64,000 nt of DNA from Sphingomonadales bacterium (GTDB lineage Bacteria; Bacteroidota; Bacteroidia; UBA7662), in NCBI GenBank assembly GCA_016872215.1, contig VHAX01000001.1:54004-118003 (forward strand), read 5' to 3'. Shown piece by piece: positions 687 through 57,575 of this stretch. The notes below the pieces were generated by a model. That model made no database searches. It was not told the origin of the DNA and worked only from the letters and a program-made list of their open reading frames with translations. Numbering within the stretch: position 1 is the stretch's first letter; every line of letters starts with the position of its first letter. The position numbers and the translations under genes are program-made.

Positions 687-1093
687 AGGGGCTGACTGGA
701 ATCGACAGCTTGCCATGATGACACTGTAAGCATGCCGAGCCTTGGGTAGGATCTCGTTAATCAGAATGCCCACGCCTTAATCGGCAACACTTCTTACGCA
801 CTTGCTGCCTAACCCTTGTGGTTAGGTAACAAAGGCACAGTTTGCCCCCAGGGGGTATCTCTGTGACGCTTCTTCCTCCGGGTGTTTACTGGCGGTGGTT
901 TTTTGAAGCGTGCCAAACACCAGTAAAATAGCAGCGGGCTTTCAGCAATCCCAAAGCGAAAATCAAACGCTGATAAGGGTAGTTCCGGCACGTCACCGGC
1001 CTCGGCTGCCCCGACAACCAACGGTCGACTAAGCATGTAGAAAGCTGTGGATCAGCTTGTCTGGACCAGGGTTCGACTCCCTGCAGCTCCACC
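687..1093 (+). ncRNA. ssrA: tmRNA (transfer-messenger RNA, SsrA)
   Basis: The 5' end GGGGCTGACTGGAATCGACAG...GCATGCCGAG matches the conserved tmRNA 5' region. The tag ORF GGC AAC ACT TCT TAC GCA CTT GCT GCC TAA encodes GNTSYALAA*. The GACTAAGCATGTAG box is present, as is a 3' tRNA-like end GGTTCGACTCCCTGCAGCTCCACC whose CAGCTCC pairs with the 5' GGGGCTG. Confidence 0.85.
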
Positions 1094-1096
1094 CCT

Positions 1097-5603: not shown

Positions 5604-8600
5604 ATGGACTACATCCGTATTTCCCGCTATTCTCTGATTTTTTTCCTGTGTTTTAGTTTGTTCGGACTGGCATCGGGCAACTTTAAAGTATATGCACAGG
5701 GACCTCCCCTGCCGCCATCGACCCACATTCCCCGACTGCAACTGCACACAGTTGACACTGGCTGGGGGCTTCTCACCTATGGCGAACCTGTGACGCGCCT
5801 GCTCGGCTTTGAGGTGAGCGGGCAAGATCTTTCGGATACGGTGCACTTATGGGCTCCCGAGTTTTTTGAGATTCGGCTCGACAGCCTGGCAGGACCCTTC
5901 AGGAACCGAATCAGCCTGCCCGCCTCAGGTCAACTTTCTCCAACCCGGATTTTCGTCCGACTCAAGGACAGCTTGCCAGTAGGAACCTACAACGGCGAGT
6001 TGCTGGCTCTGAGTAGTGGGCAATTGGGTATAGCGTTGGGCATCGAACCCGCGGTGGTATCTACCCGTAACCTACAGGTTTTGGGTCTTCAAGCCCAAAA
6101 CAAGGATTATGACGGAAACTTACAGGCTTCGGTTGTCGGCCAAGCTGTGTTTTTCGGCCTGGCTTTCGGGCAGCAGTTTACCCCCGACCTCAGTGGAATA
6201 AGCTGGGCATTTGCTTCAATCAACGCTGACTCGGGTATTGCCGTTGCACCTGTCGGATCCATCCCCCCACCCAGTTTAAACTACACAGTTACACCGCCCG
6301 GCCTTCAGGCATCCATTCTACCCAAGCGCTTGTCGGTGGGTGGTCTCACCGCACAGAACAAAAACTATGACAGGGGATTGTTGGCGAACGTAACCGGAAA
6401 CGCTGTATTCGTAGGTCTGGTGGCCGGAGAGGTGTTTAGTCAACCCGCCCCGAGGACCTGGCAATTCGAAAACAAAATGGCCGGGATGCAGAAATCGGTT
6501 CGTCCGAACACTCCATTTACTCCGCCATCCAACAATTATACAATCGACTCCACTATACTGAGGGCCGACATTGTACCGGCTCTTACTACGGTACAATCGG
6601 CCGTGGTGCACAACAAAATATACGACCGAACGGCATTGGCAAGTGTTGATTCTGTGCGTCTGAACGGAATTTTGCCGGGCGACAGCGTTCAGGTATTGGC
6701 GAACGGCACCTTCCACCAATTTCGGGCTGGCAACCAGATTCCGGTATCGTTGAACATACAGCTTTCCGGGCCCGATGGCGCCAACTACACGGCAGCAGCA
6801 CCCACGGGTTTATCCGCGAACATAACACCACGGCCCGTGCAGATTACCGGAATTTCCGTGGCAGAAAAGGAATATGACGGTACCCGATCTGCAACGCTAT
6901 TGGGTATTCCACAGCTACAGGGCATCCTTTCGGGCGACGAAACCGATGCAGTTCTTGGTGGACAACCCTTAGCTTTGTTTGCCACACCCGATACAGGCCG
7001 CAACATTCCGGTGACGGTGAGCGGTTTTCAGCTGAACGGGTCAGCCGCCGGAAGTTATCATTTGAGTCAACCCACCGGCCTTCAGGGTGATATTGTATTA
7101 TCGGTTTTGGCAGCCTGGAATTTTCAGCCAAATCATGGCACGCTGCAACATCCCGAGGCCAATGTGGGGCAAGGCTCTCTCTCTCTAATTGGCTCGATGA
7201 GCACTCTGTCGTGGTCGGGTGGGATGAGTACCCAGAATGGCTGCGGAAACGCTGGCACAATGAGCGCAGGCGATACAGCCTGGTCAATTGGTATCACCAA
7301 TCCGGGCAACATAAACGAGTCAGGCGGAATACAGTTGATGTTGGGCAGCGCCTTGTACAGAAACATTAAAATTGTATGGGATCAACGCTGGTCGGGTTCA
7401 TCGCCCAATACCGTACGATTGCAGTACAGTACAGACGGTATCCAATGGGTGAATGTACAGCTCACCGATAGCAACACCAGCTATTGTTTAGGCCGTCTCG
7501 ACAACGGCCGTTTCGAAACCGATTCCACGGGCGATAAATTCCGACGCATCCGGGTTGATTTATCCCAAATCACCCAGATCAACGAACAGACTGTTTTGGG
7601 CTTCCGGATCGTTGCTTCCCATTTCCGAAATACAGGCGCCTTTCGTCAGGTCATCAACCCATCAACAACCGCAACTTCAGGTGCCTGGCGATTCGACAAC
7701 ATCCGGATTACGGGAAAACGGGCAACACCCACGGTTTGGAACGGGGTGAATTGGAGCCAGGGCTCACCCGACACCGGAATCCACGCTATCGTATCGGCCC
7801 CGCTTCGCATCACCCAAAATTTAAACACCAACCGACTGGAACTGGACAGCGGTGCCGTATTGAACGTGGATTCGGGTGCCATACTGAACATAAGAGGCAC
7901 ATTTACCAATCGGGGCATCCTGCAACTAACAGATGGTAAGGCCATCCTCAGGGAAAACTATATCGGTTCCGGTCTCATCCGCGGCAGTCAACGGTCGACC
8001 CTGGAATTACAGCGACAAAACGACGCGGGAACGGTCCTCATGGATAGTCTTTCCGGTAGAAATGCACACACAATTGAAACCCTCATCATGAACATGGGTC
8101 CCCAAGGCCGTCTGCGTCTGGGAAACAAGATGATCATCCATCGGGTCGTAGACCTGAGAGGTGGTGTGCTTCAGACACAGGATAACCTATGCCTTTCGTC
8201 CACTTCCGACACCCTAACTGCTCAAATCAGGGGTGGAACCAATACCTCCATTCAGGGGAAGGTGGATGTGGAACGACACCTTGGGTGGGCAGGCGCCGGC
8301 CACAGCGGATATCGATTTGTGGGGAGTCCGCTCCGCTCCTCGCTACCATTCGCTCTGGTTGGTGGCCTTCCTTTCACACCAAATAGCGTGATTCGCTTCA
8401 GTGAACCACTGAACGCTTATCTATCCGTCCCCATCACCGGTAATCAGTGGAATCCCGCCCAGGCCTACGGTATTTGGACCGATAGCATTCGCACCATTCG
8501 CTTGAGTGGAGAGCCCCAGCTGAACCAATCGGGGCCCTATTTCCTCCAGAATCAATCGGCCCGCTGGAATTTAATGGGCAACCCGTTCCCAAGCGCTATG

Positions 8601-9521
8601 GCATGGGACTCAGTACAGAAAACCAATACCGAAAATGCGGTCTGGGTCTGGAGGAAAGATAGTTTGATTCCGGTTGCTGGGATCTGGGCTGCATACATCA
8701 ACGGGGTGGGAATAAATGGCGCAAATGGGATCCTGGCGCCACTACAAGGTTTCATGGTACGTGCGGGCACCAACGGCTTATCTTCCGTTTTCTTTCCGTC
8801 CACTGCCCGGCAACCCGATATGACTGCTGGTTTTCTGCGACAAAATCAATTTCATCCCCAGATCAGCATTACTTTGGAACAAGCTACACCCAACTTTCGG
8901 GAAGAAGCCATGATTCAATTGAATCCGGATGCAACGTCTGGGTTTGATATCCAACATGATGCGGGATACCTTGGAGATGAATCGAGTGTTTCCCCCTCAC
9001 TCGGCAGCCTCGACTACAATGGTTACGCCTACAGCATCCAATCCGTTCCCGATCCTACCGGTTTGGCCAGGGTCATACCTCTTCGAACTGATTTAGGTCA
9101 GATCGGGGCCTGCCAACTCAATATTCAGCTAAGTCAATGGCCATCGTCAACCCCCATCTTTTTGGAAGACCGCTTGCTTCAGTATATAGAAACCATTGTT
9201 ACTGGTATGGTATACAGCTTTCAGTCAACCGGCCCGGCCGACTCCCTGCGCTTCCGCATACACCTGAATTCAGTTAGTAGCGACATACAAGAAGATGATC
9301 TTTCGAAAATCCAGGTCTTCTTTCACGACGGAAAACTGCACATTCGGCAGGCGGGATCATTAAAACGAATCGAACTCCGGGATCTCAACGGAAGATTGAT
9401 CCAGAGCATCTTTCCCGAGGGATCCAACGAACTCCAATTACCGTTGCCTATCGCCCAGGGCCTCTATTGTCTAACACTTCATGGTAATCGAAGCTTATCC
9501 ACCCGAAAACTAGTGCGATAA
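5604..9521 (+). CDS. Giant T9SS-secreted cell-surface protein (1305 aa) with four MBG (YDG-type) repeats and a C-terminal sorting domain
   Basis: Signal peptide MDYIRISRYSLIFFLCFSLFGLASG. Repeats with QNKDYDGNLQA, QNKNYDRGLLA, HNKIYDRTALA and AEKEYDGTRSA spaced about 85 aa apart (nt ~6080-7080). A beta-helix-like middle region. C-terminal T9SS CTD (...IQVFFHDGKLHIRQ...GLYCLTLHGNRSLSTRKLVR). Confidence 0.7.
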   Translation: MDYIRISRYSLIFFLCFSLFGLASGNFKVYAQGPPLPPSTHIPRLQLHTVDTGWGLLTYGEPVTRLLGFEVSGQDLSDTVHLWAPEFFEIRLDSLAGPFRNRISLPASGQLSPTRIFVRLKDSLPVGTYNGELLALSSGQLGIALGIEPAVVSTRNLQVLGLQAQNKDYDGNLQASVVGQAVFFGLAFGQQFTPDLSGISWAFASINADSGIAVAPVGSIPPPSLNYTVTPPGLQASILPKRLSVGGLTAQNKNYDRGLLANVTGNAVFVGLVAGEVFSQPAPRTWQFENKMAGMQKSVRPNTPFTPPSNNYTIDSTILRADIVPALTTVQSAVVHNKIYDRTALASVDSVRLNGILPGDSVQVLANGTFHQFRAGNQIPVSLNIQLSGPDGANYTAAAPTGLSANITPRPVQITGISVAEKEYDGTRSATLLGIPQLQGILSGDETDAVLGGQPLALFATPDTGRNIPVTVSGFQLNGSAAGSYHLSQPTGLQGDIVLSVLAAWNFQPNHGTLQHPEANVGQGSLSLIGSMSTLSWSGGMSTQNGCGNAGTMSAGDTAWSIGITNPGNINESGGIQLMLGSALYRNIKIVWDQRWSGSSPNTVRLQYSTDGIQWVNVQLTDSNTSYCLGRLDNGRFETDSTGDKFRRIRVDLSQITQINEQTVLGFRIVASHFRNTGAFRQVINPSTTATSGAWRFDNIRITGKRATPTVWNGVNWSQGSPDTGIHAIVSAPLRITQNLNTNRLELDSGAVLNVDSGAILNIRGTFTNRGILQLTDGKAILRENYIGSGLIRGSQRSTLELQRQNDAGTVLMDSLSGRNAHTIETLIMNMGPQGRLRLGNKMIIHRVVDLRGGVLQTQDNLCLSSTSDTLTAQIRGGTNTSIQGKVDVERHLGWAGAGHSGYRFVGSPLRSSLPFALVGGLPFTPNSVIRFSEPLNAYLSVPITGNQWNPAQAYGIWTDSIRTIRLSGEPQLNQSGPYFLQNQSARWNLMGNPFPSAMAWDSVQKTNTENAVWVWRKDSLIPVAGIWAAYINGVGINGANGILAPLQGFMVRAGTNGLSSVFFPSTARQPDMTAGFLRQNQFHPQISITLEQATPNFREEAMIQLNPDATSGFDIQHDAGYLGDESSVSPSLGSLDYNGYAYSIQSVPDPTGLARVIPLRTDLGQIGACQLNIQLSQWPSSTPIFLEDRLLQYIETIVTGMVYSFQSTGPADSLRFRIHLNSVSSDIQEDDLSKIQVFFHDGKLHIRQAGSLKRIELRDLNGRLIQSIFPEGSNELQLPLPIAQGLYCLTLHGNRSLSTRKLVR

Positions 9522-9603: not shown

Positions 9604-12600
9604 ATGAAAACCAATATACTTTTCTTATCTAATTCGGTACGAGGTCAATATCAAAAATCGGTTGTTCGTCCACTCTTCAGTTCATTCATTGCTCTTACCC
9701 TGATTGCTTTTGGCATCTCCAGCTCAGCTCAGGCCCAGACCGACACCCTCGCAACCTGGGAGTTGACGGGGATCAACACCACAATCCCTCCTTGGGGCCT
9801 TTCTCCGCTTCCCGCGCAGATTGTTTCCCCCGCTGTAACCACGGATGGTTGGACGCGAGGTGCGGGAGTTTTGTTCACCGCTGCCGGACTTTCAACAACG
9901 GGCAGCCCGGCTGGTAATGCATGGGGTGGTAACGGATGGGATGCTTACACCACTGCAGGAGCAAATAACATTGATTCTGCATTGTTCAGGGGCGATTTTG
10001 TGAGCATATCCTTCAATGTTGTTGCCGGTCAAACAGTTAGCTTCTCGAGCATTCCTGCCTACAACATACGCCGCTCAAGTTCTGGCCCGAATACGGGTCA
10101 GTGGCAATTCAGCGTCAATCCGAATGGCACTTTTGTGAATATCGGCAACCCAATTACCTGGGGCACAGTAACTACTGGTACAGGAAACCCTCAAATAGCT
10201 CTTGATCTTTCAACCATTGCAGATCTGCAAAATTTGAGTGGTGGAACTTCAGTCACATTTCGAATTGTTAATACGGGAGCTACTGGCTCTGGAGGCACAT
10301 GGTACCTAAACCAATTGACTGCCGCGGGCAGAGACTTCAGTTTCATGGGCAGTGTTGGTGGTGGCGGAAATCCGACTGTGACCCTGACATTGGGCGCTGT
10401 TACACCAGGTCTCTTCTGCACTATGGCGAGTGGACAGTCGACCGTGTTTGCCAATTATTCCTCCACTGGTACGCTGACCGGACCTGTTGAATTACAATTG
10501 TCGAATGCCCAAGGTTCATTTACAAGCCCTACTGTATTGGGCAATTCACCGGCATCTTTTGGAACGATCACAGCCACCCTACCCTCGGGATTGCCCAACG
10601 GAACAGGCTACATGTTTCGCCTCGTTTCAGGAAGCACTGTAAGTTCACCCTCTTCTTCTGTGCGCATCTACAGCACGCCGCTCGAGGCAACTGCCTTCAC
10701 TGCAACCCCAGGTAACGGAACGGTTACACTCACATGGACCAACCCATCGGATTGCTTCGACCAAGCGCTTGTGGCGGCCGATGCAAACGCCATCAACGGA
10801 GTGCCGTCGGGTAACATTTTCTTATCCAACCCAATATTTGGATCGGGTGCTAACCTGAACAATGGATATGTGGTATTTGCCGCTACGGGCAACAGTATAA
10901 CGGTAACGGGTCTCACGAATGGCACCACTTACCATTTTAAGGTATTCACACAAGGCGGAAACACGTGGAGTTCAGGAATAAGTGTACAGGCCACTCCATT
11001 TACAACAGGCGTACTGCCCATAGTGAACATTTCATCCTTTGTGGGTACGGATTCACTCGGAGCGCTCACGAATTTGGGCAGCCGCTACCGAATCTCTGGT
11101 GTGGTGCATGGCATTAACCAATACAGAAGCACAAGTACCCCACTTGGTGTGCAGTATATAGTTTTAGATCAGAGTGGTGGCATTACAGTTCGTCGCGCCG
11201 GAACTGGTTTCGGCATAAGCGGTCTCGCCCAGGGGGATTCCGTTGTAGCAGAGGGAATTTTGGAGCAGTACAATGGTCTGGCCCAATTGAACATCGATAC
11301 AATGATTCAAATCTCTACCGGAAACGTCCTTCATCCGGCCCAAGTGGTGAACACTGTATCGGAATTAACCGAAAACAAGCGAATCCGCATCAATAATTTG
11401 TATATTCTCTCCGGCAGCTGGCCAGCGACAGGTTCGCCTAATAGCAATCTAATCGTTACTAATGGTACGGATACTATGCAGTTGTTTATTTTGAACCTGA
11501 CCAATATTCCGGGTACCACCCCACCAGCTGGTCTGTTCGATGTAATTGGTTATGGCGGGCAGTATGACGTGAGTAGTCCGTTGACCTCCGGCTATCAGTT
11601 GCAGCCCCATTTTTCTTACGACATCATGCCGGTAACGGTGGCCACCCCCACCCTCAACTTCACCCGGGTCGACACCTTCATTCAAAATGCCTCTACGAGT
11701 CTGCTGATGACCCTAGCCGTACAAAATCCGAGAACAACAGCGCAAAGCGTGAGTTTCACCGTCAACGCCAGTTCGGGTGCTGCCTATGGCACAAACTGGG
11801 AGACCTACCCACCCGTTGTGGGCAACGCCCTTACACTCCCGATTCCTGCCAATGCCACCACTGCCAGTTTCAGCCTGATCCTGTACGGAAACATTCCCGT
11901 GGGTCGCACCGACACGATGCGGTTTACCATCTCCTCGGCAACGGGTGGTTATGTGGCTGGTCCCCTTTCCAGCGCCGCTGTTCGTGTGGGCAATCTGGTT
12001 GCACCAGTATTACCTGAATATTCCATCGGCATCATCCGCGGCAACAATAATGGTGGTGTGGCCGATTCAATCAATGTAAACCTACGCACGAGAGGTATTG
12101 TGTTGGGCCTCAACAAGCGTCCGGCGGGTCTGGAATTCCATATTTTCGACAAGAACAGCAACACGGGCATTGGCGTTTTCCGGAATACGGGCAACCTTGG
12201 TTATACTGTGCGGGAAGGCGACTCAATATTGGTGCAAGGAATTGTGTCCCAATTTAATGGCCTATCGCAGATTACTGTGGATCAGTTGACACTACTCGAC
12301 TCGAACCGTACTCTACCCACTCCTCAGCTGGTGACCGCAATGGGTGAACAAACGGAATCGCGACTGATTCAAATGAACAACCTCACTATGGTTACGCCTT
12401 CCCAATGGCCGACACCAGGTACCACGGGCTCTGGACGTACGGTGCGGGTGACCAATGGTGTCGATTCATTCGATGTCCGAATTGACAATGATGTTAATTT
12501 ATTTGGCACACCTGCACCCACAGGTCCATTCAACATGGTTGGTATTGGCGGACAGTTCAGCACGGTCACACCACGCGTAGGTGGCTTTCAGTTGATGCCC

Positions 12601-13770
12601 CGATACATCGCGGATTTGTTGCCTGCAGTCGTATTCAATACCATTGGTGGCTCTTTGCGCTACGACAACACTGCTCAATCGCCTATAACCAATTCGACTG
12701 TACAGTTGCTATCGGGCACCACCATCATACAGTCGGCTACAACCACGTCGACTGGCTCATTCAATTTTGGAAACTTACCCGACGGCGCCTATAGTATGGT
12801 GGCATCTACAACTAAGCCATGGGGAGGTGTAAATGCCACTGACGCTCTCAATGTGGCCAGACATTTTTCCAACACTCAGTTGCTTTCTGGCCTTCGCCTC
12901 ACCGCAGCTGATGTTAATGGTTCGTCCTCCATCAACTCCACAGATGCTCTGAACATATCAAGGCGCACTGCTGCAGTGATTACCACATTCTCTGTAGGCA
13001 ACTGGTATTTTGAGTCGCCCCAACTGACTGTGAGTGGTGGAACAACTACCACTCAAAACATCAAAGGCATTTGCTTTGGGGATGTCAATGGCAGCTACAA
13101 CCCTGCACTGAGAACACTACCCACGGTTTCACTCATTAATGGCGCCACGACAACCGGTTTGTACACCTCAATCCCGGTAACGGCAGCAGAAGACATAAAA
13201 CTAGGTGCTGTCACCCTAATTATGGACATTCCACAAGGCGTTGAAGTTACTGAAATCGTTCCGGCTGCGCTCATAAGTGGCTCATTTGTGTCTACCATAG
13301 TTAACGGGCAGGTAAGAATTAGTTGGTATTCACTCGATGAAGTGCAGTCATCTGCAGGCGAAGAATTGTTTAGCCTGCGCACCCGTTACAATGGTCAACG
13401 CTCAATCGCTGCATCGGAATGGACAATCGATGCGATTAGTGAACTGGCAGACGGATGGGCCAATCCATATACACGTTCCGTATTGAAAATTGGCGTATTG
13501 GCTGGAGTCGAATCAAACAGTGTTTTATATCCAAATCCCTCGAATGGGGTTGCCAACCTACGTTTTGAATTAACCCAAACAGCGCAAGTTCACATCCGAA
13601 TCATGGACATGTCCGGACGCCAAATCCACAGCATAAACCTAAATCAGTCGACCGGTATCCATTTAGTTGAGATGCCATATCTCGCTACTGGTCAGTATCT
13701 GGTACGCCTAAACATTGAATCGGACAACACATCCAGCAGCGAAGTACACCGTTGGGTTGTGAAGCACTAA
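9604..13770 (+). CDS. Giant T9SS-secreted surface protein (1388 aa) with an FN3-like domain, a dockerin-like Ca-binding module, a cohesin-like module and a C-terminal sorting domain
   Basis: Signal peptide (...IALTLIAFGISSSAQA). FN3-like TATPGNGTVTLTWTNPSD. Dockerin-like GGVNATDALNVARHF...ADVNGSSSINSTDALNISRR (nt ~12820-12965). Cohesin-like LGAVTLIMDIPQGVEVTEIVPA...VNGQVRISWYSLD (nt ~13150-13400). T9SS CTD VLYPNPSNGVANLRFELTQTAQVHIRIMDMSGRQIHS.... Confidence 0.7.
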   Translation: MKTNILFLSNSVRGQYQKSVVRPLFSSFIALTLIAFGISSSAQAQTDTLATWELTGINTTIPPWGLSPLPAQIVSPAVTTDGWTRGAGVLFTAAGLSTTGSPAGNAWGGNGWDAYTTAGANNIDSALFRGDFVSISFNVVAGQTVSFSSIPAYNIRRSSSGPNTGQWQFSVNPNGTFVNIGNPITWGTVTTGTGNPQIALDLSTIADLQNLSGGTSVTFRIVNTGATGSGGTWYLNQLTAAGRDFSFMGSVGGGGNPTVTLTLGAVTPGLFCTMASGQSTVFANYSSTGTLTGPVELQLSNAQGSFTSPTVLGNSPASFGTITATLPSGLPNGTGYMFRLVSGSTVSSPSSSVRIYSTPLEATAFTATPGNGTVTLTWTNPSDCFDQALVAADANAINGVPSGNIFLSNPIFGSGANLNNGYVVFAATGNSITVTGLTNGTTYHFKVFTQGGNTWSSGISVQATPFTTGVLPIVNISSFVGTDSLGALTNLGSRYRISGVVHGINQYRSTSTPLGVQYIVLDQSGGITVRRAGTGFGISGLAQGDSVVAEGILEQYNGLAQLNIDTMIQISTGNVLHPAQVVNTVSELTENKRIRINNLYILSGSWPATGSPNSNLIVTNGTDTMQLFILNLTNIPGTTPPAGLFDVIGYGGQYDVSSPLTSGYQLQPHFSYDIMPVTVATPTLNFTRVDTFIQNASTSLLMTLAVQNPRTTAQSVSFTVNASSGAAYGTNWETYPPVVGNALTLPIPANATTASFSLILYGNIPVGRTDTMRFTISSATGGYVAGPLSSAAVRVGNLVAPVLPEYSIGIIRGNNNGGVADSINVNLRTRGIVLGLNKRPAGLEFHIFDKNSNTGIGVFRNTGNLGYTVREGDSILVQGIVSQFNGLSQITVDQLTLLDSNRTLPTPQLVTAMGEQTESRLIQMNNLTMVTPSQWPTPGTTGSGRTVRVTNGVDSFDVRIDNDVNLFGTPAPTGPFNMVGIGGQFSTVTPRVGGFQLMPRYIADLLPAVVFNTIGGSLRYDNTAQSPITNSTVQLLSGTTIIQSATTTSTGSFNFGNLPDGAYSMVASTTKPWGGVNATDALNVARHFSNTQLLSGLRLTAADVNGSSSINSTDALNISRRTAAVITTFSVGNWYFESPQLTVSGGTTTTQNIKGICFGDVNGSYNPALRTLPTVSLINGATTTGLYTSIPVTAAEDIKLGAVTLIMDIPQGVEVTEIVPAALISGSFVSTIVNGQVRISWYSLDEVQSSAGEELFSLRTRYNGQRSIAASEWTIDAISELADGWANPYTRSVLKIGVLAGVESNSVLYPNPSNGVANLRFELTQTAQVHIRIMDMSGRQIHSINLNQSTGIHLVEMPYLATGQYLVRLNIESDNTSSSEVHRWVVKH

Positions 13771-13908: not shown

Positions 13909-13995
13909 TGGTGCCCAGGACTGGACTCGAACCAGCACAGGATAACTCCCACTACCCCCTCAAAGTAGCGTGTCTACCAATTTCACCACCTGGGC
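13909..13995 (-). tRNA. tRNA-Leu (anticodon GAG), class II with a long variable arm
   Basis: The reverse complement GCCCAGGTGGTGAAATTGGTAGACACGCTACTTTGAGGGGGTAGTGGGAGTTATCCTGTGCTGGTTCGAGTCCAGTCCTGGGCACCA has a 7-bp acceptor stem, a D-loop, the anticodon arm CTACT-TTGAGGG-GGTAG (GAG at positions 34-36), a long variable arm, the T-arm GGTTCGAGTCC and an encoded CCA. Confidence 0.8.
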
Positions 13996-29532: not shown

Positions 29533-30714
29533 CTAACGGCCAGACGGATATTTCTCGAGTAGCCAGGCATCATGCTGAATCTTCGCACGAATCAAAGTCA
29601 AAAAAGAATCGGCTTCGGCCGCACTTCTGACACTAAATACTGTACCCACGCGTTTGAGTCCACCCGCAGAGGGAGAAATCACTGCCGGCTCAAACCCGGA
29701 CTGTTTCAAAGCCAACTCCTGCCTTTCAGCATTCCTCTTGGAGGAAAAACAACCCACCACCACGACTGCATCAAAAGTCGCCTCCGAAATATGAGATTCC
29801 AATTCCAAGGAGGAATAATTCGGGGCTGCAATTTCCGGCTGGCGTGGTATACGGGCCACAGCTTCCGGCTGGCGTGGTATACGGGTCACAGCTTCCGGCT
29901 GGCGCGGTATACGATAGGTTGAACCTGGATAATCGGGCGAAACTTTACCTTGAACAGGAAGCGCATTGGAATCAATGGTCGGGGCTAAACTCATGGATGG
30001 TAAACTGTCAGTTTCCCGTTGAAAAGTATCTGCCTGAGATATCGTGCCAGCCTCGTATTCCATTATCGTTGAATCCATAGGCGGATAAAGGCGGGGAAAT
30101 TCCGGCAAAAGGGAGGAATCATGTCTTACTCTAACCTCACTCAATCCGGCACGTTGTGTCTCATCAGACAATCCGTATTGTCTAAACAACAGCACTGCGG
30201 GCCCAAGCACCGCAATCCATAGTGCTGCCCACCCAATCATCCCCATCCGCCTTTTCCAAATTCCCTTTCTATTGATCTCATCTGGAACAGAAGGCCCATT
30301 CAATCCATTGGGAAACAACATACGGGTGGGCGGCACAATGGCCGGATACCGATATGATGCCAAAAAATGCACGAGCAGGGGATGCTCGGGCTCCAGTCGT
30401 CCCTCTCCTACACCAGTCGGCACTATCCTTCCCAGACCCAATAAATCAAAAGATTCAGTCCAGTCGGTCGGCACTTCATCGAGCAAAAGGGAGGAAGAAA
30501 ACTCCCATTGTGACACCTGGGTATTGGCAGTTGTGACGGCAGCGCCCCTGTTTAGGTACCAACGAAATTGAGGGGGTTCGAGGCGACGATTAGAAGATGC
30601 ACGTTGAACGGGATCCCGTTTTTTATAGAAAACACCCAACCCCGGAACATGAACGCCCATGTTTGCGGTCAGCAATTGGGTGGCCAGCTCGTTAATAGCG
30701 CAGTCGCGGTTCAT
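29533..30714 (-). CDS. HU-like N-terminal domain / SPOR-domain protein with an internal proline-rich tandem repeat
   Basis: N-terminus MNRDCAINELATQLLTANMGVHVPGLGVFYKK (HU/IHF-like fold motif). One TM (IGWAALWIAVLGPAVLLF). C-terminal SPOR domain FDAVVVVGCFSSKRNAERQELALKQSGFEPAVISPSAGGLKRVGTVFS. Repeat YRIPRQPEAVTRIPRQPEAVARIPRQPEIA. Confidence 0.6.
   Translation of the reverse strand: MNRDCAINELATQLLTANMGVHVPGLGVFYKKRDPVQRASSNRRLEPPQFRWYLNRGAAVTTANTQVSQWEFSSSLLLDEVPTDWTESFDLLGLGRIVPTGVGEGRLEPEHPLLVHFLASYRYPAIVPPTRMLFPNGLNGPSVPDEINRKGIWKRRMGMIGWAALWIAVLGPAVLLFRQYGLSDETQRAGLSEVRVRHDSSLLPEFPRLYPPMDSTIMEYEAGTISQADTFQRETDSLPSMSLAPTIDSNALPVQGKVSPDYPGSTYRIPRQPEAVTRIPRQPEAVARIPRQPEIAAPNYSSLELESHISEATFDAVVVVGCFSSKRNAERQELALKQSGFEPAVISPSAGGLKRVGTVFSVRSAAEADSFLTLIRAKIQHDAWLLEKYPSGR
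29833..29915 (-). repeat. Three tandem copies of a 30-bp coding repeat (TTCCGGCTGGCGTGGTATACGGGCCACAGC) inside the HU-SPOR gene
   Basis: Copy 1 at 29833-29862. Copy 2 at 29863-29892, with one mismatch. Copy 3 at 29893-~29915 is partial and diverged. The repeats are in-frame and encode RIPRQPEAV(T/A). Confidence 0.85.
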
Positions 30715-35629: not shown

Positions 35630-37960
35630 CTAAAAGTTCCAGGTTACTCCGAAGCTGGGGAGGATGGGCAGCTGATTCACCCGAGAGAATCGAACCCGAT
35701 CGAAATAGAAGATGTTACGTCGGTCGTACACATTGCTGACGCTGAAATTGAAGTCTATTTCAGAATGGTCACTCACAGCGTAGGTGTATCGAAGCGATGC
35801 ATCCAGGCGGTGATAGGAAGGCAGTCGTGCCTGGTTAAAGCCTGCATATACTACACCGAGTTCTCCATTCTGTGACAAGTAGTCGCTGTTGATTCCCCCA
35901 TTCAAACTGAGGTTAGGGTAAAACCCCTGGGTTTGGGTGAAGGGAAACCCGGACCCGTAATTCCAGCGCGTGCTCAATTCCCAGCTGCGGTCGCTGCCAA
36001 ATTTGTAGATCCCCACCAGGTTGATATTGTGTCGGCGGTCAAAAGATGGAAAATAAGTGCGTTGTCCGTCGAATCGATCCACGTAGGTCCAGGAATATGT
36101 AGCCCATACATAATATTGTCTGCGATCGTATTTAAGCCTGAAATCAAAGCCATAGGCTCGTCCCCGTTCAATAATGAAATCCTTCTTCAAAAAGTCGGGC
36201 TTTTGCTCGAATTCGCTGATGTCCTCGTAGATTTTATCGCGGTTAATGTTGGTAAGTTGATCAAAGTTCTTGATGTAGGATTCTACATTCAATTCTACAT
36301 GCTTACCCAAATCGATTTCGGTACCGACAATCGCGTGGCGGGCCTTTTGAAGCTTCGACTGCACCCGCTCCCCATCGAAAGTTTTGGGTAGATTGTCGGG
36401 CCCTGATAAGAATCCGAAGAACAAATTCACAACATCACGGTCTGAGACGGCGCTGATCAGGTTTTGGCTATACCATCCCCCGGCGAATTTGAGTCGAAGC
36501 GCGGGCGACAAGTTGTATTTGAGGCCCAATCGGGGTTCTACAGAAAACTCGCCGAGCGATGCATAATAATGACCCCGCAGTCCGGGCTCCAACACCAATT
36601 TATCGGTGAGCAGCTTGTATTTGATATAGCCAGCCAATTCAGTTGTATTCTCATTTTGGTTGAGGATGATGCCACTCGGATTGGTGAACTTGAAGCGCGT
36701 GCCAAAACCGACCAAATCGAAACCAAAGTTAAGTTCGTCGCGCTGCAGGTACTGGGCAATATTGACCGTTCCGTTGAACCCGGATATTCCGCTGTTTCTC
36801 GGACCCCTGCCCCGTTCGATTTGAAATGAATTGTAGTCGGACCAAGCGAGTGTACCGCTCACAACGCTATTAGAACCCTCGGGAATCAGCACAAAATTTC
36901 CCCCTAATCCACGTGAATCCCACCCAAAATCCGATACGTTTCGGAAATTGGCTCTGTCACTGAAATTGAACCCAAAAAGGCTAAACTTACTACCATTGGA
37001 GGATCTGAAAGTAGTTTTGGCATATAAATCGGTAAAACTGAAGGGCAAGCCATTGCTGTCGGCATAGGTATAGAGTCTTTTCGAGGATTGATCGAGCCAC
37101 GACGAACGGGCCGACACAACCAGGGTTGGTGCTGGTTTCTCAGGTGTACCGGCCTTGCCCAAAGGGCCTTCCATCAGAACACGGCCAAGGAATGGACTAG
37201 CGCCGACTTTTCCTTTCCATCGTTTTTGGTTGCCATCACGGGTGGTGATATCCATGACTGCAGATATACGTCCGCCGTGGTTGGAGTTATAACCCCCGGT
37301 ATAAACGTCAGCACTTTGAATTATATCGGTCTCAAAAACGGAAAACAGCCCAATCGAGTGGAATGGGTTATATACAATCATCCCATCAAGCATTACCTTA
37401 TTCTGAACCGGTGATCCACCCCGGATGTAGAGCTGTCCACCCTGGTCGCCCGTGAATATCACACCGGGTAGCACTTGAAGGTATTGGGCAATATCAGGCT
37501 CCCCTCCAACGCTCACGATCTGCGTGATCTGCTTGGGGGTCACCGTTTCTACGGATACCTTAACAGTTGTGCGTTGCTCTTCTTTCTCCCCCCTCACTTC
37601 CACCATCTCCAGATTGAGGCTCGATTTGCGCAGAAATAATTTCTCGTTGAGAATATCTCCCCCTTTGATACGGACAACGACACTAACGGTGTCATATCCC
37701 AGATAGGTACTCATCAGTGTATAACTACCGGGCGGAATTCGGGTGATGGTAAAAAAGCCTTTGGTATCTGTACTCGACCCGAGGGTTGTGCCTTTAAGGT
37801 ATACATTGGTAAAGAGAATGGGCTCCCCGCTGCCCTGGTCGTAGATAAACCCCCTGATTACACCGGTAGCGGATTGGGCCTCAATAAATTTTACCGGAAG
37901 AAAAAGTGTACATATCGCCGACAAAACGGCGACAGTGATAAAAGATGAGTGCAGTCGCAT
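35630..37960 (-). CDS. TonB-dependent outer-membrane receptor with an N-terminal carboxypeptidase-regulatory-like domain
   Basis: Signal peptide at the internal ATG (MRLHSSFITVAVLSAICTLFLPVKFIEAQS). CarbopepD-reg-like VIRGFIYDQGSGEPILFTNVYLKG...GYDTVSVVV. A plug region. A beta-barrel with a C-terminal ...PSFGVTWNF. No susD-like partner gene adjacent. Confidence 0.7.
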   Translation of the reverse strand: MRLHSSFITVAVLSAICTLFLPVKFIEAQSATGVIRGFIYDQGSGEPILFTNVYLKGTTLGSSTDTKGFFTITRIPPGSYTLMSTYLGYDTVSVVVRIKGGDILNEKLFLRKSSLNLEMVEVRGEKEEQRTTVKVSVETVTPKQITQIVSVGGEPDIAQYLQVLPGVIFTGDQGGQLYIRGGSPVQNKVMLDGMIVYNPFHSIGLFSVFETDIIQSADVYTGGYNSNHGGRISAVMDITTRDGNQKRWKGKVGASPFLGRVLMEGPLGKAGTPEKPAPTLVVSARSSWLDQSSKRLYTYADSNGLPFSFTDLYAKTTFRSSNGSKFSLFGFNFSDRANFRNVSDFGWDSRGLGGNFVLIPEGSNSVVSGTLAWSDYNSFQIERGRGPRNSGISGFNGTVNIAQYLQRDELNFGFDLVGFGTRFKFTNPSGIILNQNENTTELAGYIKYKLLTDKLVLEPGLRGHYYASLGEFSVEPRLGLKYNLSPALRLKFAGGWYSQNLISAVSDRDVVNLFFGFLSGPDNLPKTFDGERVQSKLQKARHAIVGTEIDLGKHVELNVESYIKNFDQLTNINRDKIYEDISEFEQKPDFLKKDFIIERGRAYGFDFRLKYDRRQYYVWATYSWTYVDRFDGQRTYFPSFDRRHNINLVGIYKFGSDRSWELSTRWNYGSGFPFTQTQGFYPNLSLNGGINSDYLSQNGELGVVYAGFNQARLPSYHRLDASLRYTYAVSDHSEIDFNFSVSNVYDRRNIFYFDRVRFSRVNQLPILPSFGVTWNF

Positions 37961-38080
37961 AAAGTGGCGAATATACGGTTTTTGCTCATCCAAACAGGCT
38001 ATTTTCTGATGAATAACCGCCAACGCTGGATTATGGGAGAGACCTACCAAAATATGTCCCCTTTGCCTGCCCTCAATACT

Positions 38081-38682
38081 TCAGGCTCTTCGCCCGTGAG
38101 GTCTACCTGCGTTGAAGGTTTGTCCCTCCGACCAACCGTGGTCGAGGAACACATCAACATCGTCGAAATACCGGAAAACTATCTCATCCGGATCACGATA
38201 GTGGTATTCGATCCCTTCAATTATATCGGAAAGTGAAGCTGAGACCAGGGGCGAACCCATGACAGCGATGAGCATGCCTGCTACCGGATGATTGGGTATT
38301 CGTAGCCCGATGTTCCTTCGCCGGTTTTGGAGTTGGCGAGGTGCCAGGCCGGATGCAGGAAGTATGAAAGTATATGGACCAGGCAGGGCCTTACGAATCA
38401 ATCGAAAATAGGTGTTTGGAATGGGAAGTGTGTTAGGCGGCGAGGTGACTGAAATCAGCACACACCAGGGAAAGAGTTGAGGCGTCGGGAAGTCCGCGTA
38501 CCTTCAGCAATCGTTCAACCGCCCCTTGCGATCGTATATCAGCGGCCAATCCATAATAAGTATCGGTTGGATAGATGACGATACCACCCGACTGAAGCAC
38601 CTCTGCGGCCCTCAGAATGTTTCTTTTATCGTATCGGGCTCTTCTGTGTAGGTGATTAATTGCTCCAAATTCTACGCATCAT
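38081..38682 (-). pseudogene. tsaC: L-threonylcarbamoyladenylate synthase (TsaC/YrdC) gene disrupted by at least one frameshift
   Basis: One frame (38678-38433) encodes ...YDKRNILRAAEVLQSGGIVIYPTDTYYGLAADIRSQGAVERLLKVRGLPDASTLSLVCADFSHLAA* (YrdC N-terminal half) with no in-frame ATG. The +1 frame (track ORF 38461-38081, GTG start) continues ...NTYFRLIRKALPGPYTFILPAS...PNHPVAGMLIAVMGSPLVSASLSDII...VDVFLDHG (YrdC C-terminal half). An ATGATG at 38682-38677 lies in a third frame. Confidence 0.6.
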
Positions 38683-39869
38683 GCTACACAGGCGCGGACC
38701 TGTTCTGCTGCCTCGTGCAACCCGGTAACCGCCTGAATGGGCAATCCTGAAGCGTCCAGCAAGGCACGGGCTTCGCTGGCATTGGTGCCCTGAAGACGCA
38801 CAATAAGGGGGATGTCCATATTTCCCAACTGCTTACAAACGTCAACGATACCCTGAGCCACACGGTCACACCGCACGATTCCCCCAAAAATATTCACCAA
38901 TATAGCCTTAACATTGGGATCCTTGCGGATGATTCTAAAGGCATTGGCCACCCGTTCGGCGCTGGCTGTGCCCCCTACATCGAGAAAATTGGCAGGCTTT
39001 CCACCCGACAGCTGAATGATATCCATGGTGGCCATAGCCAACCCTGCCCCATTTACCATACACCCTACGTTGCCATCCAGTTTCACATAATTCAGGTTAT
39101 GCTCACCGGCTTCTACTTCCGTTGGATCTTCCTCGCGAATATCGCGCAGGGCTTCCAGATCTAAGTGCCTGTATAGTGCATTTTCATCGATGCTCACCTT
39201 AGCATCAACTGCAATTATCCGGTCGTCGGATGTTTTAAACAGTGGATTAATCTCGAAAAGCGAGGCATCCGATTGTTCATATGCATTCACCAGTGCCGGT
39301 ACAAAACGCGTCATTTCCCGGAAGGCTTGTCCCTGCAAACCCAAGTTTCGTGCAATCTTGCGCGCCTGAAAAGGCATGAGCCCAACAGAAGGGTCTATCA
39401 CCTCCTTGTGGATTTTATCGGGGCGCTCGTCAGCTACCTTTTCAATGTCCATACCCCCCTCCGTTGAATAAACAATTATATTCTTGCCCAGAGAACGATC
39501 CAGCAATACGGACATATAAAACTCCTGAACGGGAGAGGTTCCTCCGTAATACACATCCTGAGCAACCAGGATTTGATAAACTTTTTTACCAAGAGGACCG
39601 GTCTGTGGGGTCACCAGCTGCATGCCCAGGATCTTGCCTGCCTTTTCTCGAACCTCTTCAAGTGACTGTGCAACTTTTACACCACCCCCCTTACCTCGTC
39701 CACCCGCATGAATTTGCGCCTTCAAGACCCAACACTTCGTGCCAGTTGATTCCTGAAGTTGTCGCGCGGCTTGAACCGCGTCATCTGCGGTATGAACGGG
39801 GATTCCCTGTTGTATGGCGACACCAAACTGGCTCAATAAGGCTTTTCCCTGGTACTCGTGAAGGTTCAT
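38679..39869 (-). CDS. sucC: Succinate--CoA ligase (ADP-forming) beta subunit
   Basis: 396 aa. [17 protein letters not shown]...[19 protein letters not shown]...[28 protein letters not shown] matches SucC closely end to end. Confidence 0.95.
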
Positions 39870-47915: not shown

Positions 47916-49229
47916 ATGCATTTGAAAGGATTTCGATTTGTAACATTATCTTTTGGACTTTCTATCCAGCTTTTGTGTAGCAGAAACGCCGCTGCTCAGG
48001 AATTTCCAGGTCTCCTCCCTGAAGACCATACCTACCGACCAAACATAAAAACGGTTCGGTTCTTACAGGGTGACAAGCATTTTTCGGTGCCGATGATGCA
48101 ACTTGGCGATCCAAACGGGTCGCTCGTTCTCCACTTTGATGACCTCGACGGGGGCTTTGTGCCCTACTCGTTTACCCTCATCCACTGCACGGCCGATTGG
48201 ACGCCATCAGGTATGCTCAGCACACAATTCATCGATGGGTTTCAAGAGGATCAGGTAGTTGACTACCGGACTTCTTTTAATACGTTGAAGCCATACACCC
48301 ACTACAAAATCGGCATTCCCACCGAAAATATCCGTCCGACCCTCAGCGGCAACTATCTCCTGCTTGTGTACCGCGACGGTGACCGAAGCGCACCCGTTCT
48401 CACCCGCCGATTTTTCGTGCTCCAACCGCTGATGTCGGTAAATCCCATCATCCGCCGGCCGAGTCGTCCCGATGTCATGGCCATTGCGCATGAAATCGAT
48501 TTTGATGTCAACCTGGGAGAACAGCAGGTCTACAATCCATTCGATGAATTGAAGGTTGTGATTCGGCAAAATGGGCGGTGGGACAACCAAGTGGGGGGAT
48601 TGCCACCGCAGTTTATTCGCAACAATACCATCACATACGACCACAACGACCGCAATATTTTCACGGCAGGCAACGAATTCCGCCAGATAGACCTGCGGAA
48701 CATCCGGTTCAGGGGACAGGGCGTTTCAAAAGTGGAGATCGGGCCGGAATCGGTGCAGATGTGGGCCGAGCCCGAGGAAGGGCGGGCGCACCTTCGCTAT
48801 TTTTCGTATCAGGATTTGAACGGTAATTACCTGATTCAGAGCAATGAAGCCCGTAATTCCGACAATGAAGCCGACTACATCGACGTGACCTTCAGCCTGC
48901 TCCAGCCCTCCCCTCTGCGTAATGCCCGTGTGTATCTTTTTGGCCAGCTAACCGACTGGAAACTGGATTCGACGACCGAGTTGACCTACCACTCTGCCCT
49001 TGGGGCCTATCAAATTACGCTATCCCTTAAACAGGGCTACTACGATTATAGCTACGTCTGGGTCGGGAATGGCAGTCCCCTTGCCGATGACACCTGGTTT
49101 GAGGGAAGCCATCAGGAAACGGAATGCGATTATGAAGTGTTCGTGTACCACCAACCCCCGGTGAGCCCGCGCTACGATCGTCTGGTTGCCTACACCCGCT
49201 TCAACTCCATGAACCGAATGGGGCGGTAG
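47916..49229 (+). CDS. Secreted beta-rich protein of unknown function, tentatively DUF5103 / T9SS plug-like
   Basis: Signal peptide MHLKGFRFVTLSFGLSIQLLCSRNAAAQ. 437 aa, aromatic-rich (YDYSYVWVG, YEVFVYHQ). The family call is from memory only and unverified. Confidence 0.3.
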   Translation: MHLKGFRFVTLSFGLSIQLLCSRNAAAQEFPGLLPEDHTYRPNIKTVRFLQGDKHFSVPMMQLGDPNGSLVLHFDDLDGGFVPYSFTLIHCTADWTPSGMLSTQFIDGFQEDQVVDYRTSFNTLKPYTHYKIGIPTENIRPTLSGNYLLLVYRDGDRSAPVLTRRFFVLQPLMSVNPIIRRPSRPDVMAIAHEIDFDVNLGEQQVYNPFDELKVVIRQNGRWDNQVGGLPPQFIRNNTITYDHNDRNIFTAGNEFRQIDLRNIRFRGQGVSKVEIGPESVQMWAEPEEGRAHLRYFSYQDLNGNYLIQSNEARNSDNEADYIDVTFSLLQPSPLRNARVYLFGQLTDWKLDSTTELTYHSALGAYQITLSLKQGYYDYSYVWVGNGSPLADDTWFEGSHQETECDYEVFVYHQPPVSPRYDRLVAYTRFNSMNRMGR

Positions 49230-54857: not shown

Positions 54858-57575
54858 ATGTCATTGATCAACAGAGCTGTTTTACTACTTGTTTTATTAA
54901 ATTTCTCAACATTCCTGTGTTCAGGTCAGGAAGCGAGAATGGGCGCGTCATTAGCAACCAGATTTATTGAAAACCCAGGGCCAAACACTTGGATGAGGAT
55001 AACCGTATCCTTCAAAGAACAAGCGCCCGTATTAGATTTACTCAGGCGGTATGAACTGGATGGAACTGAGCTAAAAGTACGCGCACAAGAGGTGAACCGC
55101 GTTTGTAGTTTGCTGAGTGATCGGGTGCAGCTTCCCTTTTTGACGGATTTAGAGACAATGGGTTCGCAGGCAAACGATAATCGTCCACGTTTGATTCGCC
55201 GTTTTTGGATCGTTAATATGGTCGAGCTGGAAGTGACTATCAGGCATATAGATCTGCTGCTGCGCCACCCCGCTGTTGAGGAAATAGAACTCAGCAGCGC
55301 GTTTCAGGTCTCGCTGGTAGAACCGGTTTCGGGAAGCGCATCCCCTGAAATGCCCAATGGGAGGGAGGTAGGACTAACCGCAATAGGTGCACCCGCTCTT
55401 TGGCAAATGGGCTACTCGGGCAAAGGACGAAAAGCTATGCTGATGGACACCGGCGTTTGGCCCGATCACCCAGCCTTGAAGGGTAAATTTCTTGGCACCC
55501 GATACCCATTGTCGCACGCCTGGTTGCCCTATGATTTCGCGACACCCCGCGACAAAAACAGCAACCATGGCACACACGTAATCGGCACTGTACTCGGGCT
55601 GGATACGGCAACCCGCGATACGATCGGCGCTGCCTTCGACGCCTATTTTTTAGCGACCGACCCGATTGTGACTAACATCGCATTCGTGCGTGATTGGACC
55701 CAACTTATGGCCGCTTTTGAATGGGCACTCAACCCGGATGGTGACACCAGTACCACCCACGATATTCCGGATGTGATCAACAATTCATGGGGACGAAATA
55801 ACGCAGGATTCGATTCCCTCTGCGGGCATCCCCTGATCACCAGTGCCATGATCGCCATAGAAGCTGCTGGAATCGCCAATGTTTTTTCAACCGGAAATGA
55901 CGGACCAGGACTGGCTACAACGATAGTACCCGCCCAGGTGATCATCGACTCCCTCAATTTATTTGCGGTTGGTGCGGTTCAGGCTGCCGCTCCTGGGTAC
56001 CCTCTGGCCGGGTTTTCCAGCTGGGGGCCCTCGCGCTGCACACAAGACAGTTTTTTGATGATCAAGCCCGAAGTTTCGGCACCCGGGGTTGACGTACGCT
56101 CAGCAGACGGACCCACTGGCTACGGGATTAAATCGGGTACCAGCATGGCTTCGCCGCACGTAAGCGGTGCAGTTCTATTATTGAAAGAAGCCTTTCCCCA
56201 ACTCTCAGGGCGTCAAATTCTGAATGCCCTCTATCAATCAGCCATCGACCTTGGAGTTCCGGGTGAGGACTATCAGTATGGAAGAGGTCTCATCAACGTG
56301 CCGGCAGCCTTCCAGTTCTTGTTGCAATCTAACACTCCTCAACCTCCCGCTCGTGCATACGATTTAGCGATTGCAGGTGTAGACTCGCCCGAAACTGCGT
56401 TTTTTGGCAGTGGAGGTTGCCTGCAAACCGGCCCTATTATGCCTCCCGTGCTCATACTCCGGCAGCGTTGGCGGATCGAGGTCATGAACCGGGGCGATAG
56501 TATTTTACCCGGCTTTCGGCTGTTTATCGATATAAATGGACAAAGCGACACCATCAACCATAATAATTCAGTATTTCCAGGCCAGCGCGTACGGGTCACC
56601 ACACCCTATTTTGTACTTAATCCGCCGGCGCTGCCCACTGGGCCGGCAGGTGTACCCAATCGATTGTTGTTTCGTGCCCAAAACCTCGCAGGGATGATGG
56701 AGCGCGACACCATTAACAACCGTTGGTTTGCCGAATTCCCTACCCGCAACATTGTGGAAACTCGCTTCTATGAAGCCTTCGACAGCCTTCGAACCAACGG
56801 ACTTTATGCACATCGCATCGACGATTGGGTCATCCGGGATTTGGATGCCGACGCGAAGACCTGGCAGATTGTGCCCACAGGAGGGCGCGCAGCTCAATCG
56901 GCGTGCGTAAAGATGAAAGATTATGGTCCAGGCAACGGTCAACTCGATGAGCTGGTTTCGCCCCTGATGTGGTTCAGCCGGCCTGCCTCTGGCGCGAGCG
57001 GCACCGGAGCCTTGTCGTTCGACATAGCCTACAGCAACAGGAGTACAACCTTTAGCGATACTCTGTTTCTGGATTGGTCGACCGACTGTGGCGCAACCTA
57101 TCAACGACTATGGTTGAATGGGGGCGACAGTATGAAAACCTACAACGGACTGGTTCCTTCCGATTCCGCCCACTGGCGTCGCTGGCAGATCCCTTTACCC
57201 GACAGCCTCCTGCAACCATATCCCCTTTCAGCCCGCATTCGTTTCACCACGAAAAACGACTGGGGCGGCAATTTGTATCTGAGTAACATTCAGGTGTATT
57301 ATCAGGTTGCCAGTTTGCAGGAAGAAGATTTGTCGACCTCCCTTAAAATTTATCCAAACCCAGCCTATGCACAACTCAATGTAGTGCTACCGAATGCCCA
57401 ATGCGGGAAGCCTTTACTCTACGATGCGCTGGGAAGAATTCAGGCGGTTGAATGGAACCAAACAGATCCGGACACCTACAGGCTAAATACGCAGGGATTG
57501 CCTGTCGGCATCTATTACATCCGCTCTCATTCTAAACTCAAAACCCTTCAGGGAAAAGTGCTGATTTTCAAATGA
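54858..57575 (+). CDS. S8-family subtilisin-like serine peptidase with a T9SS C-terminal sorting domain (905 aa)
   Basis: Catalytic triad blocks MLMDTGVWPDHPAL (Asp), SNHGTHVIGTV (His) and GTSMASPHVSGAVLLLKEAFP (Ser). C-terminus KIYPNPAYAQLNVVL...GIYYIRSHSKLKTLQGKVLIFK. Confidence 0.85.
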   Translation: MSLINRAVLLLVLLNFSTFLCSGQEARMGASLATRFIENPGPNTWMRITVSFKEQAPVLDLLRRYELDGTELKVRAQEVNRVCSLLSDRVQLPFLTDLETMGSQANDNRPRLIRRFWIVNMVELEVTIRHIDLLLRHPAVEEIELSSAFQVSLVEPVSGSASPEMPNGREVGLTAIGAPALWQMGYSGKGRKAMLMDTGVWPDHPALKGKFLGTRYPLSHAWLPYDFATPRDKNSNHGTHVIGTVLGLDTATRDTIGAAFDAYFLATDPIVTNIAFVRDWTQLMAAFEWALNPDGDTSTTHDIPDVINNSWGRNNAGFDSLCGHPLITSAMIAIEAAGIANVFSTGNDGPGLATTIVPAQVIIDSLNLFAVGAVQAAAPGYPLAGFSSWGPSRCTQDSFLMIKPEVSAPGVDVRSADGPTGYGIKSGTSMASPHVSGAVLLLKEAFPQLSGRQILNALYQSAIDLGVPGEDYQYGRGLINVPAAFQFLLQSNTPQPPARAYDLAIAGVDSPETAFFGSGGCLQTGPIMPPVLILRQRWRIEVMNRGDSILPGFRLFIDINGQSDTINHNNSVFPGQRVRVTTPYFVLNPPALPTGPAGVPNRLLFRAQNLAGMMERDTINNRWFAEFPTRNIVETRFYEAFDSLRTNGLYAHRIDDWVIRDLDADAKTWQIVPTGGRAAQSACVKMKDYGPGNGQLDELVSPLMWFSRPASGASGTGALSFDIAYSNRSTTFSDTLFLDWSTDCGATYQRLWLNGGDSMKTYNGLVPSDSAHWRRWQIPLPDSLLQPYPLSARIRFTTKNDWGGNLYLSNIQVYYQVASLQEEDLSTSLKIYPNPAYAQLNVVLPNAQCGKPLLYDALGRIQAVEWNQTDPDTYRLNTQGLPVGIYYIRSHSKLKTLQGKVLIFK

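Follow-up and report, generated by a model that had tools for sequence, protein, structure and literature searches.

Between two intact genes on the minus strand of the window, the whole 64,000-nt stretch of DNA analysed here, lies a disrupted gene of the YrdC/Sua5 domain family. The window is part of a 169-kb contig of a GenBank MAG (proteins MBM3917938-52, locus-tag prefix FJ344). Upstream of the disrupted gene stands sucC for the beta subunit of succinate–CoA ligase (38679..39869, minus strand; MBM3917944.1), downstream a gene for a 776-aa TonB-dependent receptor (35630..37960, minus strand; MBM3917941.1). Both genes are intact and served as synteny anchors, and the 720 nt between them hold no long open reading frame. 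Apart from this gap the window is densely coding, and no other broken gene was found among the JGI gene calls.

Locus layout and gene limits

The yciO-family pseudogene occupies positions 38044..38668 on the minus strand. These 625 nt correspond to an ancestral open reading frame of 618 nt plus 7 inserted nucleotides. Three-frame translation divided the coding sequence into four segments over three reading frames. Segment 1 (LEQLITYTEEPD…) is read from the native start codon, a TTG (LEQLITYT…; 38666..38668, minus strand) located 10 nt past the stop codon of sucC. Segment 2 contains …KRNILRAAEVLQSGGIVIYPTDTYYGLAAD… and also, before CADFSHLAA, …GGIVIYPTDTYYGLAAD…; it is terminated by a TAA at 38435-38433. 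This is the N-terminal half whose end the original prediction had placed at a TAA at 38433, and its location of the C-terminal half in another frame was likewise confirmed by the translations. Segment 3 reads …TLPIPNTYFRLIRKALPGPYTFILPAS…VDVFLDHGWSEGQ…, and segment 4 (…PSTQVDLTGEEPEVLRAGKGDIFW, followed by the stop) comprises the last 22 codons in the third frame. The native stop codon is a TAG after …GKGDIFW (38044..38046, minus strand), and the proteins of the relatives end with …GKG.VFW at the same alignment column. Read from the native TTG, the frame is closed by a stop after 18 codons, and no full-length open reading frame is left.

A TTG start is present at the homologous site in the relatives L007, L013, L017 and L018, where it opens the sequence LEHLITYT, and in L022 too. 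An ATGATG at 38682-38677 had been expected as start and the gene had been delimited to 38682..38081. This ATGATG coincides in part with the TGA that ends sucC (38681-38679) and opens a frame closed after 8 codons, and the lower gene limit left out the last 22 codons. The 10-nt spacer between the stop of sucC and the TTG holds GGAGG in three relatives (TGGGAGGAAT in L007, L017 and L018), and reads TGCGTAGAAT in the window (38669-38678) and TGCTGAAAAT in L013. The difference from GGAGG may represent a lost ribosome-binding site or mere drift. A sigma-70 promoter and terminator scan of the region 37800-38900, which does not cover Bacteroidota promoters, yielded chance-level counts. The Rfam scan of the whole window had only a tmRNA and a tRNA as matches and none at the pseudogene locus.

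Two fragments of the pseudogene are open reading frames with a GTG start. The larger one (126 aa; 38081..38461, minus strand) is labelled 'hypothetical protein FJ344_00350' in GenBank (MBM3917942.1), though it is a pseudogene fragment, and the second one, with 55 aa, lies on the N-terminal side. The GenBank numbering, with MBM3917941 for the receptor, MBM3917942 for the 126-aa protein and MBM3917944 for sucC, implies an extra coding sequence MBM3917943 within 38461-38679. The 55-aa open reading frame, as translated, was absent from the protein collection.

Frame-breaking insertions

The alignment of the DNA with four intact 618-nt orthologues presented exactly three gaps, hence three insertions with 7 nt in total. 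Lesion 1 is a perfect 5-nt tandem duplication, CGATA|CGATA (38627..38636, minus strand; +5 shift; gap columns 33-37). The inserted 5 nt were placed at 38636-38632, where the relatives read GAGCC-CGATA-AAAG, encoding EEPD-KRNI. Lesion 2 is an extra A (38434 or 38433, within 38433..38435, minus strand; +1 shift; gap column 235). It turns TAC-ACA (Tyr-Thr) into TAA-CAC and causes the premature TAA; the relatives read HL[AS][AS]-Y-TLPI at this site. Removal of one A at 38434/38433 gives HLAA-Y-TLPIPNTYF, matching the relatives. The single-nucleotide indel near 38433 suspected in the original prediction was therefore correctly located with respect to this lesion, but it is one of three insertions and the two others had been missed. 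Lesion 3 is an extra A in an AAA run (38119..38121, minus strand; +1 shift; gap column 548), resulting in GGA CAA ACC versus G...AG CC. in the relatives, whose proteins read GQ-PSTLVDLTG. It moves the last 22 codons into the third frame.

With the 7 nt removed, the repaired gene has 618 nt, the same length as the genes of the relatives, and contains a stop-free open reading frame of 205 aa. Shifts of +5, +1 and +1 reproduced the observed order of frames. In bacterial pseudogenes, deletions usually predominate. All three lesions in this gene are insertions, against the usual bias, which at n=3 is weak counter-evidence.

Intact relatives and synteny

The repaired and joined protein was searched with BLASTP against 5.8 billion protein clusters. 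Six intact proteins (P0001-P0006; 205-216 aa) had 70-78% identity over 100% of the query in this search, followed by matches of ~45% identity from Chitinophagaceae and others. The stop-free 205-aa open reading frame aligned with these six from end to end at 77-80% identity. An intact allele of >80% identity was not present in the 5.8 billion protein clusters. The contigs of the intact orthologues (L007-L013) keep the order sucC–gene–TonB receptor, and the same synteny was observed in MAG contigs labelled Bacteroidetes/Bacteroidota, including VGGT01000140 from Lake Tanganyika. A scan of genome contigs revealed intact relatives only, with 78-86% identity, plus one unrelated match of 25%; the genome of the window itself was absent from this collection. 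Three more intact loci with 78% identity and the same gene order were obtained from the scan of metagenome contigs. In the comparison with orthologous loci, a check that the original prediction had recommended, the gene was intact and in the same synteny at every related locus from both scans, and none of the three shifts was present in any relative.

Affiliation within the YrdC/Sua5 family

The locus had been proposed to be a broken tsaC/yrdC, hence a gene for t6A, a near-universal and usually essential tRNA modification. The affiliation to the YrdC/Sua5 domain family is correct and the gene is truly disrupted, but the PDB scores and a tetrad of residues identify it as YciO-type and not as TsaC. 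PF01300 was present in all homologues found. The repaired protein scored 160.7 bits with TIGR00057, the model of the Sua5/YciO/YrdC superfamily (cut-off 123.2; profile positions 4-193/202), and 71.6 bits with NF007919, the NCBIfam model for type-1 TsaC, below the curated equivalog cut-off of 175. Among the PDB sequences, E. coli YciO (1k7j/1kk9) was matched over the full length with 154 bits (E = 2.7e-44) by the single sequence and with 221 bits (E = 1e-64) by a profile of the clade. The corresponding values were ~74 and 112 bits for Sua5 proteins, and for E. coli TsaC (1hru) 65 bits, covering the N-terminal part only, and 81 bits. Across all PDB sequences, TsaC and Sua5 scored 80-140 bits below YciO.

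In a profile alignment to Sua5 of S. tokodaii, the positions of the KRSN tetrad are occupied by R-L-S-S in the repaired protein, with aKnRp of Sua5 opposite vRgLp and pSaNl opposite aSlSe. The tetrad K-x-R…S-x-N reads R-x-L…S-x-M in E. coli YciO, and the KRSN tetrad is known to be absent from YciO (PMC4615747). The intact relatives carry [K/R]-[L/I/V]-S-[S/T/P]; the arginine and the asparagine of the tetrad are absent in these as well as in the Chitinophagaceae homologues. YciO is a paralogue of TsaC of unknown function, possibly rRNA-related, and occurs in ~54% of bacteria (PMC4615747; PMC12506659; PMC10321239).

The repaired protein resembles YciO (E. coli b1267; 1K7J/1KK9; PF01300 / COG0009) in being collinear with it (residues 7-203 versus 8-202), in length (205 versus 206 aa), in the tetrad deviation R-x-L…S-x-[S/M] and in consisting of one domain without the C-terminal domain of Sua5. 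It differs in that the gene here appears to be dead, with three frameshifts, and in the neighbours: this locus, like that of every relative, is flanked by sucC and the TonB receptor gene. The YciO subfamily is also described as having a conserved patch of positive charge on its surface (PMC12506659). Many yciO genes adjoin rnm (yciV), an arrangement that is frequent and not defining (PMC12506659); it was found neither at this locus nor at the loci of the relatives. With TsaC and Sua5 (E. coli YrdC 1HRU; S. tokodaii Sua5 2EQA) the repaired protein shares the Pfam domain, the fold family, a score above the TIGR00057 cut-off and the motifs GG..YPTDT.YGL and PGP.T, but Arg52 and Asn141 are absent, Lys50 is replaced by Arg and the similarity is much weaker. 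Judged from sequence, the broken gene is a member of the YciO subfamily rather than the t6A enzyme TsaC/Sua5. The argument that an essential, near-universal gene is broken does therefore not apply.

We regard it as very improbable that the gene was nevertheless the functional threonylcarbamoyl-AMP (TC-AMP) synthase of the lineage and that its decay reflects a loss or rerouting of t6A synthesis. The names attached to the family speak for such a function: the model TIGR00057, whose cut-off is passed, is termed 'L-threonylcarbamoyladenylate synthase', and homologues are listed as 'threonylcarbamoyl-AMP synthase' in databases. These names have to be weighed against the YciO-type scores and against the absence of R52 and N141 of the KRSN tetrad, which extends to the intact relatives. 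TC-AMP synthesis by E. coli YciO has been observed in vitro, but it is very weak, >10^4-fold below that of TsaC (PMC12506659), and YciO cannot replace TsaC in vivo (PMC12506659, PMC4615747). A second PF01300 gene was not found within ~73 kb, the window with ~9 kb of flanks; tsaC, sua5, tsaD, tsaB and tsaE were also absent from these ~73 kb, which are a small part of a genome and uninformative on the remainder. A true TsaC or TsaC2, separate from YciO, was present in 9176 of 9176 surveyed bacterial genomes (PMC4615747). It is just as improbable that the YciO-like gene was the only PF01300 protein of the lineage, which would leave the population without a canonical threonylcarbamoyl-AMP synthase.

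Recurrence of the lesions in other assemblies

The exact sucC protein was found on at least 23 contigs. Six of these were read (JGI 3300020198, JGI 3300020193, Logan SRR16108667/68/76 and ENA ERZ27247963, the latter with MEGAHIT-style k141 names), and all had sucC, the gap and the receptor in this order, with no YrdC gene called. Over 671 nt across the locus, the six assemblies were identical to the window with the exception of one T/C site at 38175, and all three lesions were present. This site (minus strand; T/C on the coding strand, Phe versus Ser; alignment column 526) is the only polymorphic one in the pseudogene. L005 and L006 differ from the window; serine is the state in most relatives and the phenylalanine of the window is derived. 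Relative to the window, each of the six assemblies had 3-7 SNPs per 21 kb, in different combinations, which characterizes them as distinct consensus sequences from a single, nearly clonal population, even if they may partly share read sets. IMG 3300020193, 3300020197 and 3300020198 are water-column metagenomes of Lake Tanganyika (PMC8245535).

A sequencing or assembly error over a gene that is intact in the organism is largely refuted and has to be rated as highly improbable. The original prediction had already considered it not the obvious explanation, and the recurrence of the same lesions in six assemblies from three pipelines (JGI, Logan, ENA) and at least three Lake Tanganyika samples argues strongly in the same direction, the more so as these assemblies differ from the window at other SNPs. 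Two of the three lesions are a single A beside another A, a context that is error-prone on some platforms, but the runs of A have only 2-3 nt and the 5-nt tandem duplication is not of the homopolymer type. Furthermore, the 64 kb contain ~55 other genes without disruption. A minority intact allele may be present among the reads of the population.

In one assembly (L002, SRR16108667), an in-frame stretch of 30 nt is missing at 29856-29885, within a gene for a 393-aa hypothetical protein (29533-30714, minus strand), yielding a variant of 383 aa (P0129). This is the only indel polymorphism seen in the 21 kb.

Possible expression of the interrupted gene

Programmed recoding at three sites, by the ribosome or the RNA polymerase, would allow the production of a full-length protein from the interrupted gene. 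We consider this exceedingly improbable. Site 1 is located just before A-AAA-G, and a -1 slip of the tRNA-Lys in the P-site would bring the frame back and give …EEPD-TI-KRNIL…, but A-AAA-G is only weakly slippery. Site 2, GCC-TAA-C, has a stop directly behind a sense codon and formally resembles stop-stimulated +1 sites such as that of prfB; slippery re-pairing, however, is lacking at sites 2 and 3 (GCC to CCU; CAA to AAA). Three successive events of low efficiency would result in a negligible yield, and the region was negative in the Rfam scan. Frameshifting conserved in relatives, named beforehand as a finding that would speak against a broken gene, was looked for in the alignments and was absent: the relatives all have uninterrupted 618-nt open reading frames. 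We know of no bacterial gene that requires three shifts of mixed sign.

A split gene, with the 55-aa and the 126-aa fragments made separately and assembling into an active protein, can practically be dismissed. Both fragments have a possible GTG start, and the larger one is listed as a protein in GenBank. However, the breaks are inside a single globular YrdC-type fold collinear with E. coli YciO and not between domains, the 126-aa fragment is missing the final 22 residues and with them the conserved PST.VDLTG…GKG motif, the 55-aa fragment loses the N-terminal 11 residues, and the GTG codons correspond to internal Val/Cys-Ala positions in the relatives and not to conserved starts.

Age of the inactivation

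Synonymous sites were saturated in the comparison of the window with each of the available relatives (pS 0.73-0.84), and those of the neighbouring genes likewise. A dN/dS ratio for the terminal branch was thus not measurable; in its place, private changes were counted and dN ratios were calculated with sucC and the TonB receptor gene as references. Both tests have low power due to the synonymous saturation and the lack of relatives of 80% to 100% identity. Within this limit, dN(yciO)/dN(sucC) was 2.1-3.2 in pairs with the window versus 2.2-4.1 in pairs of intact relatives that are deeply diverged. Over the columns without variation in the six close relatives, private changes numbered 9 in the window, with two junction artefacts of the reconstruction left out, and 9 and 13 in two intact relatives on long branches. 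Where all eight other sequences agree, the window deviated at one column only, by a conservative change of L to M. Some private changes of the window are radical (K to I; L to Q within the PSTLVDL strand; S to F at the polymorphic site 38175), a pattern expected from early neutral drift. Three lesions without a measurable excess of substitutions are slightly unexpected, albeit in a test of low power. As the amino-acid change is not accelerated, the decay appears to be recent. The history indicated by these comparisons is one of purifying selection over most of the existence of the lineage, followed by a recent inactivation older than the coalescence of the present population.

Interpretation of the locus

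Taken together, the locus very probably represents a genuine and recent pseudogene of the YciO subfamily, fixed in an uncultured and almost clonal population of Bacteroidota from the water column of Lake Tanganyika. The ancestor would have possessed a TTG-initiated open reading frame of 618 nt directly downstream of sucC. Three independent small insertions, the 5-nt duplication and two single A, would have arisen by replication slippage once YciO had presumably become dispensable in this lineage, leaving a gene that is predicted to be functionally dead. Another gene of this genome, for a TsaC/Sua5 with the KRSN tetrad, is likely responsible for the synthesis of t6A, as the genome survey suggests (PMC4615747). 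As in ordinary frameshift pseudogenes, several small indels are present relative to intact syntenic orthologues, length and synteny are kept, the neighbours are intact and the disruption has become fixed in the population. Unlike in these, all lesions are insertions and the amino-acid divergence is not yet raised, so that the pseudogene appears young.

A single ordinary pseudogene in a non-essential family of patchy distribution carries little weight alone. The result corrects the tempting reading of a broken essential t6A gene, which is rooted in the generic family name given to YciO-type proteins; the over-annotation of such proteins has been discussed (PMC12506659). In comparative work on the function of YciO, the recent natural loss of a gene that purifying selection maintains in close relatives counts as a minor data point. 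The population is more likely a natural yciO knockout that shares the lake with a sister species whose yciO is intact than a bacterium devoid of any TC-AMP synthase. If this holds, the pairing of knockout and sister species could be mined for co-lost genes as a way to probe the function of YciO. If the genome had no other TC-AMP synthase, the population would consist of free-living bacteria that either do without t6A or have an alternative way of producing it.

Other features of the window

The GenBank label 'Sphingomonadales bacterium' refers to an alphaproteobacterial order. The window encodes features of type IX secretion (T9SS), e.g., at 9604-13770, 47916-49229 and 54858-57575, including Por_Secre_tail domains, a T9SS_plug protein and TonB receptors with CarboxypepD_reg domains, and the relatives closest to it bear the labels Bacteroidetes/Bacteroidota. 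The order given in GenBank seems to be mistaken, possibly through a slip for Sphingobacteriales.

A tmRNA gene was identified at 688-1094 (plus strand; 117 bits with Rfam), for which ARAGORN predicted the tag peptide GNTSYALAA. In the JGI data, a protein of 75 aa was called antisense across the tmRNA (L016, 6657-6884), probably a spurious call. A tRNA-Leu(GAG) is encoded at 13909-13995 (minus strand) in a gap of 315 nt between the gene for a secreted protein of 1388 aa and a BrkB-family gene. Two adjacent, very large genes are located on the plus strand at 5604-9521 and 9604-13770. The first encodes 1305 aa with a match to the YDG domain, the second 1388 aa with CarboxypepD_reg and Dockerin_1, both weak matches, and a Por_Secre_tail domain. 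According to their domain content, the 1305-aa and 1388-aa proteins are presumably secreted or cell-surface cargo of the T9SS.
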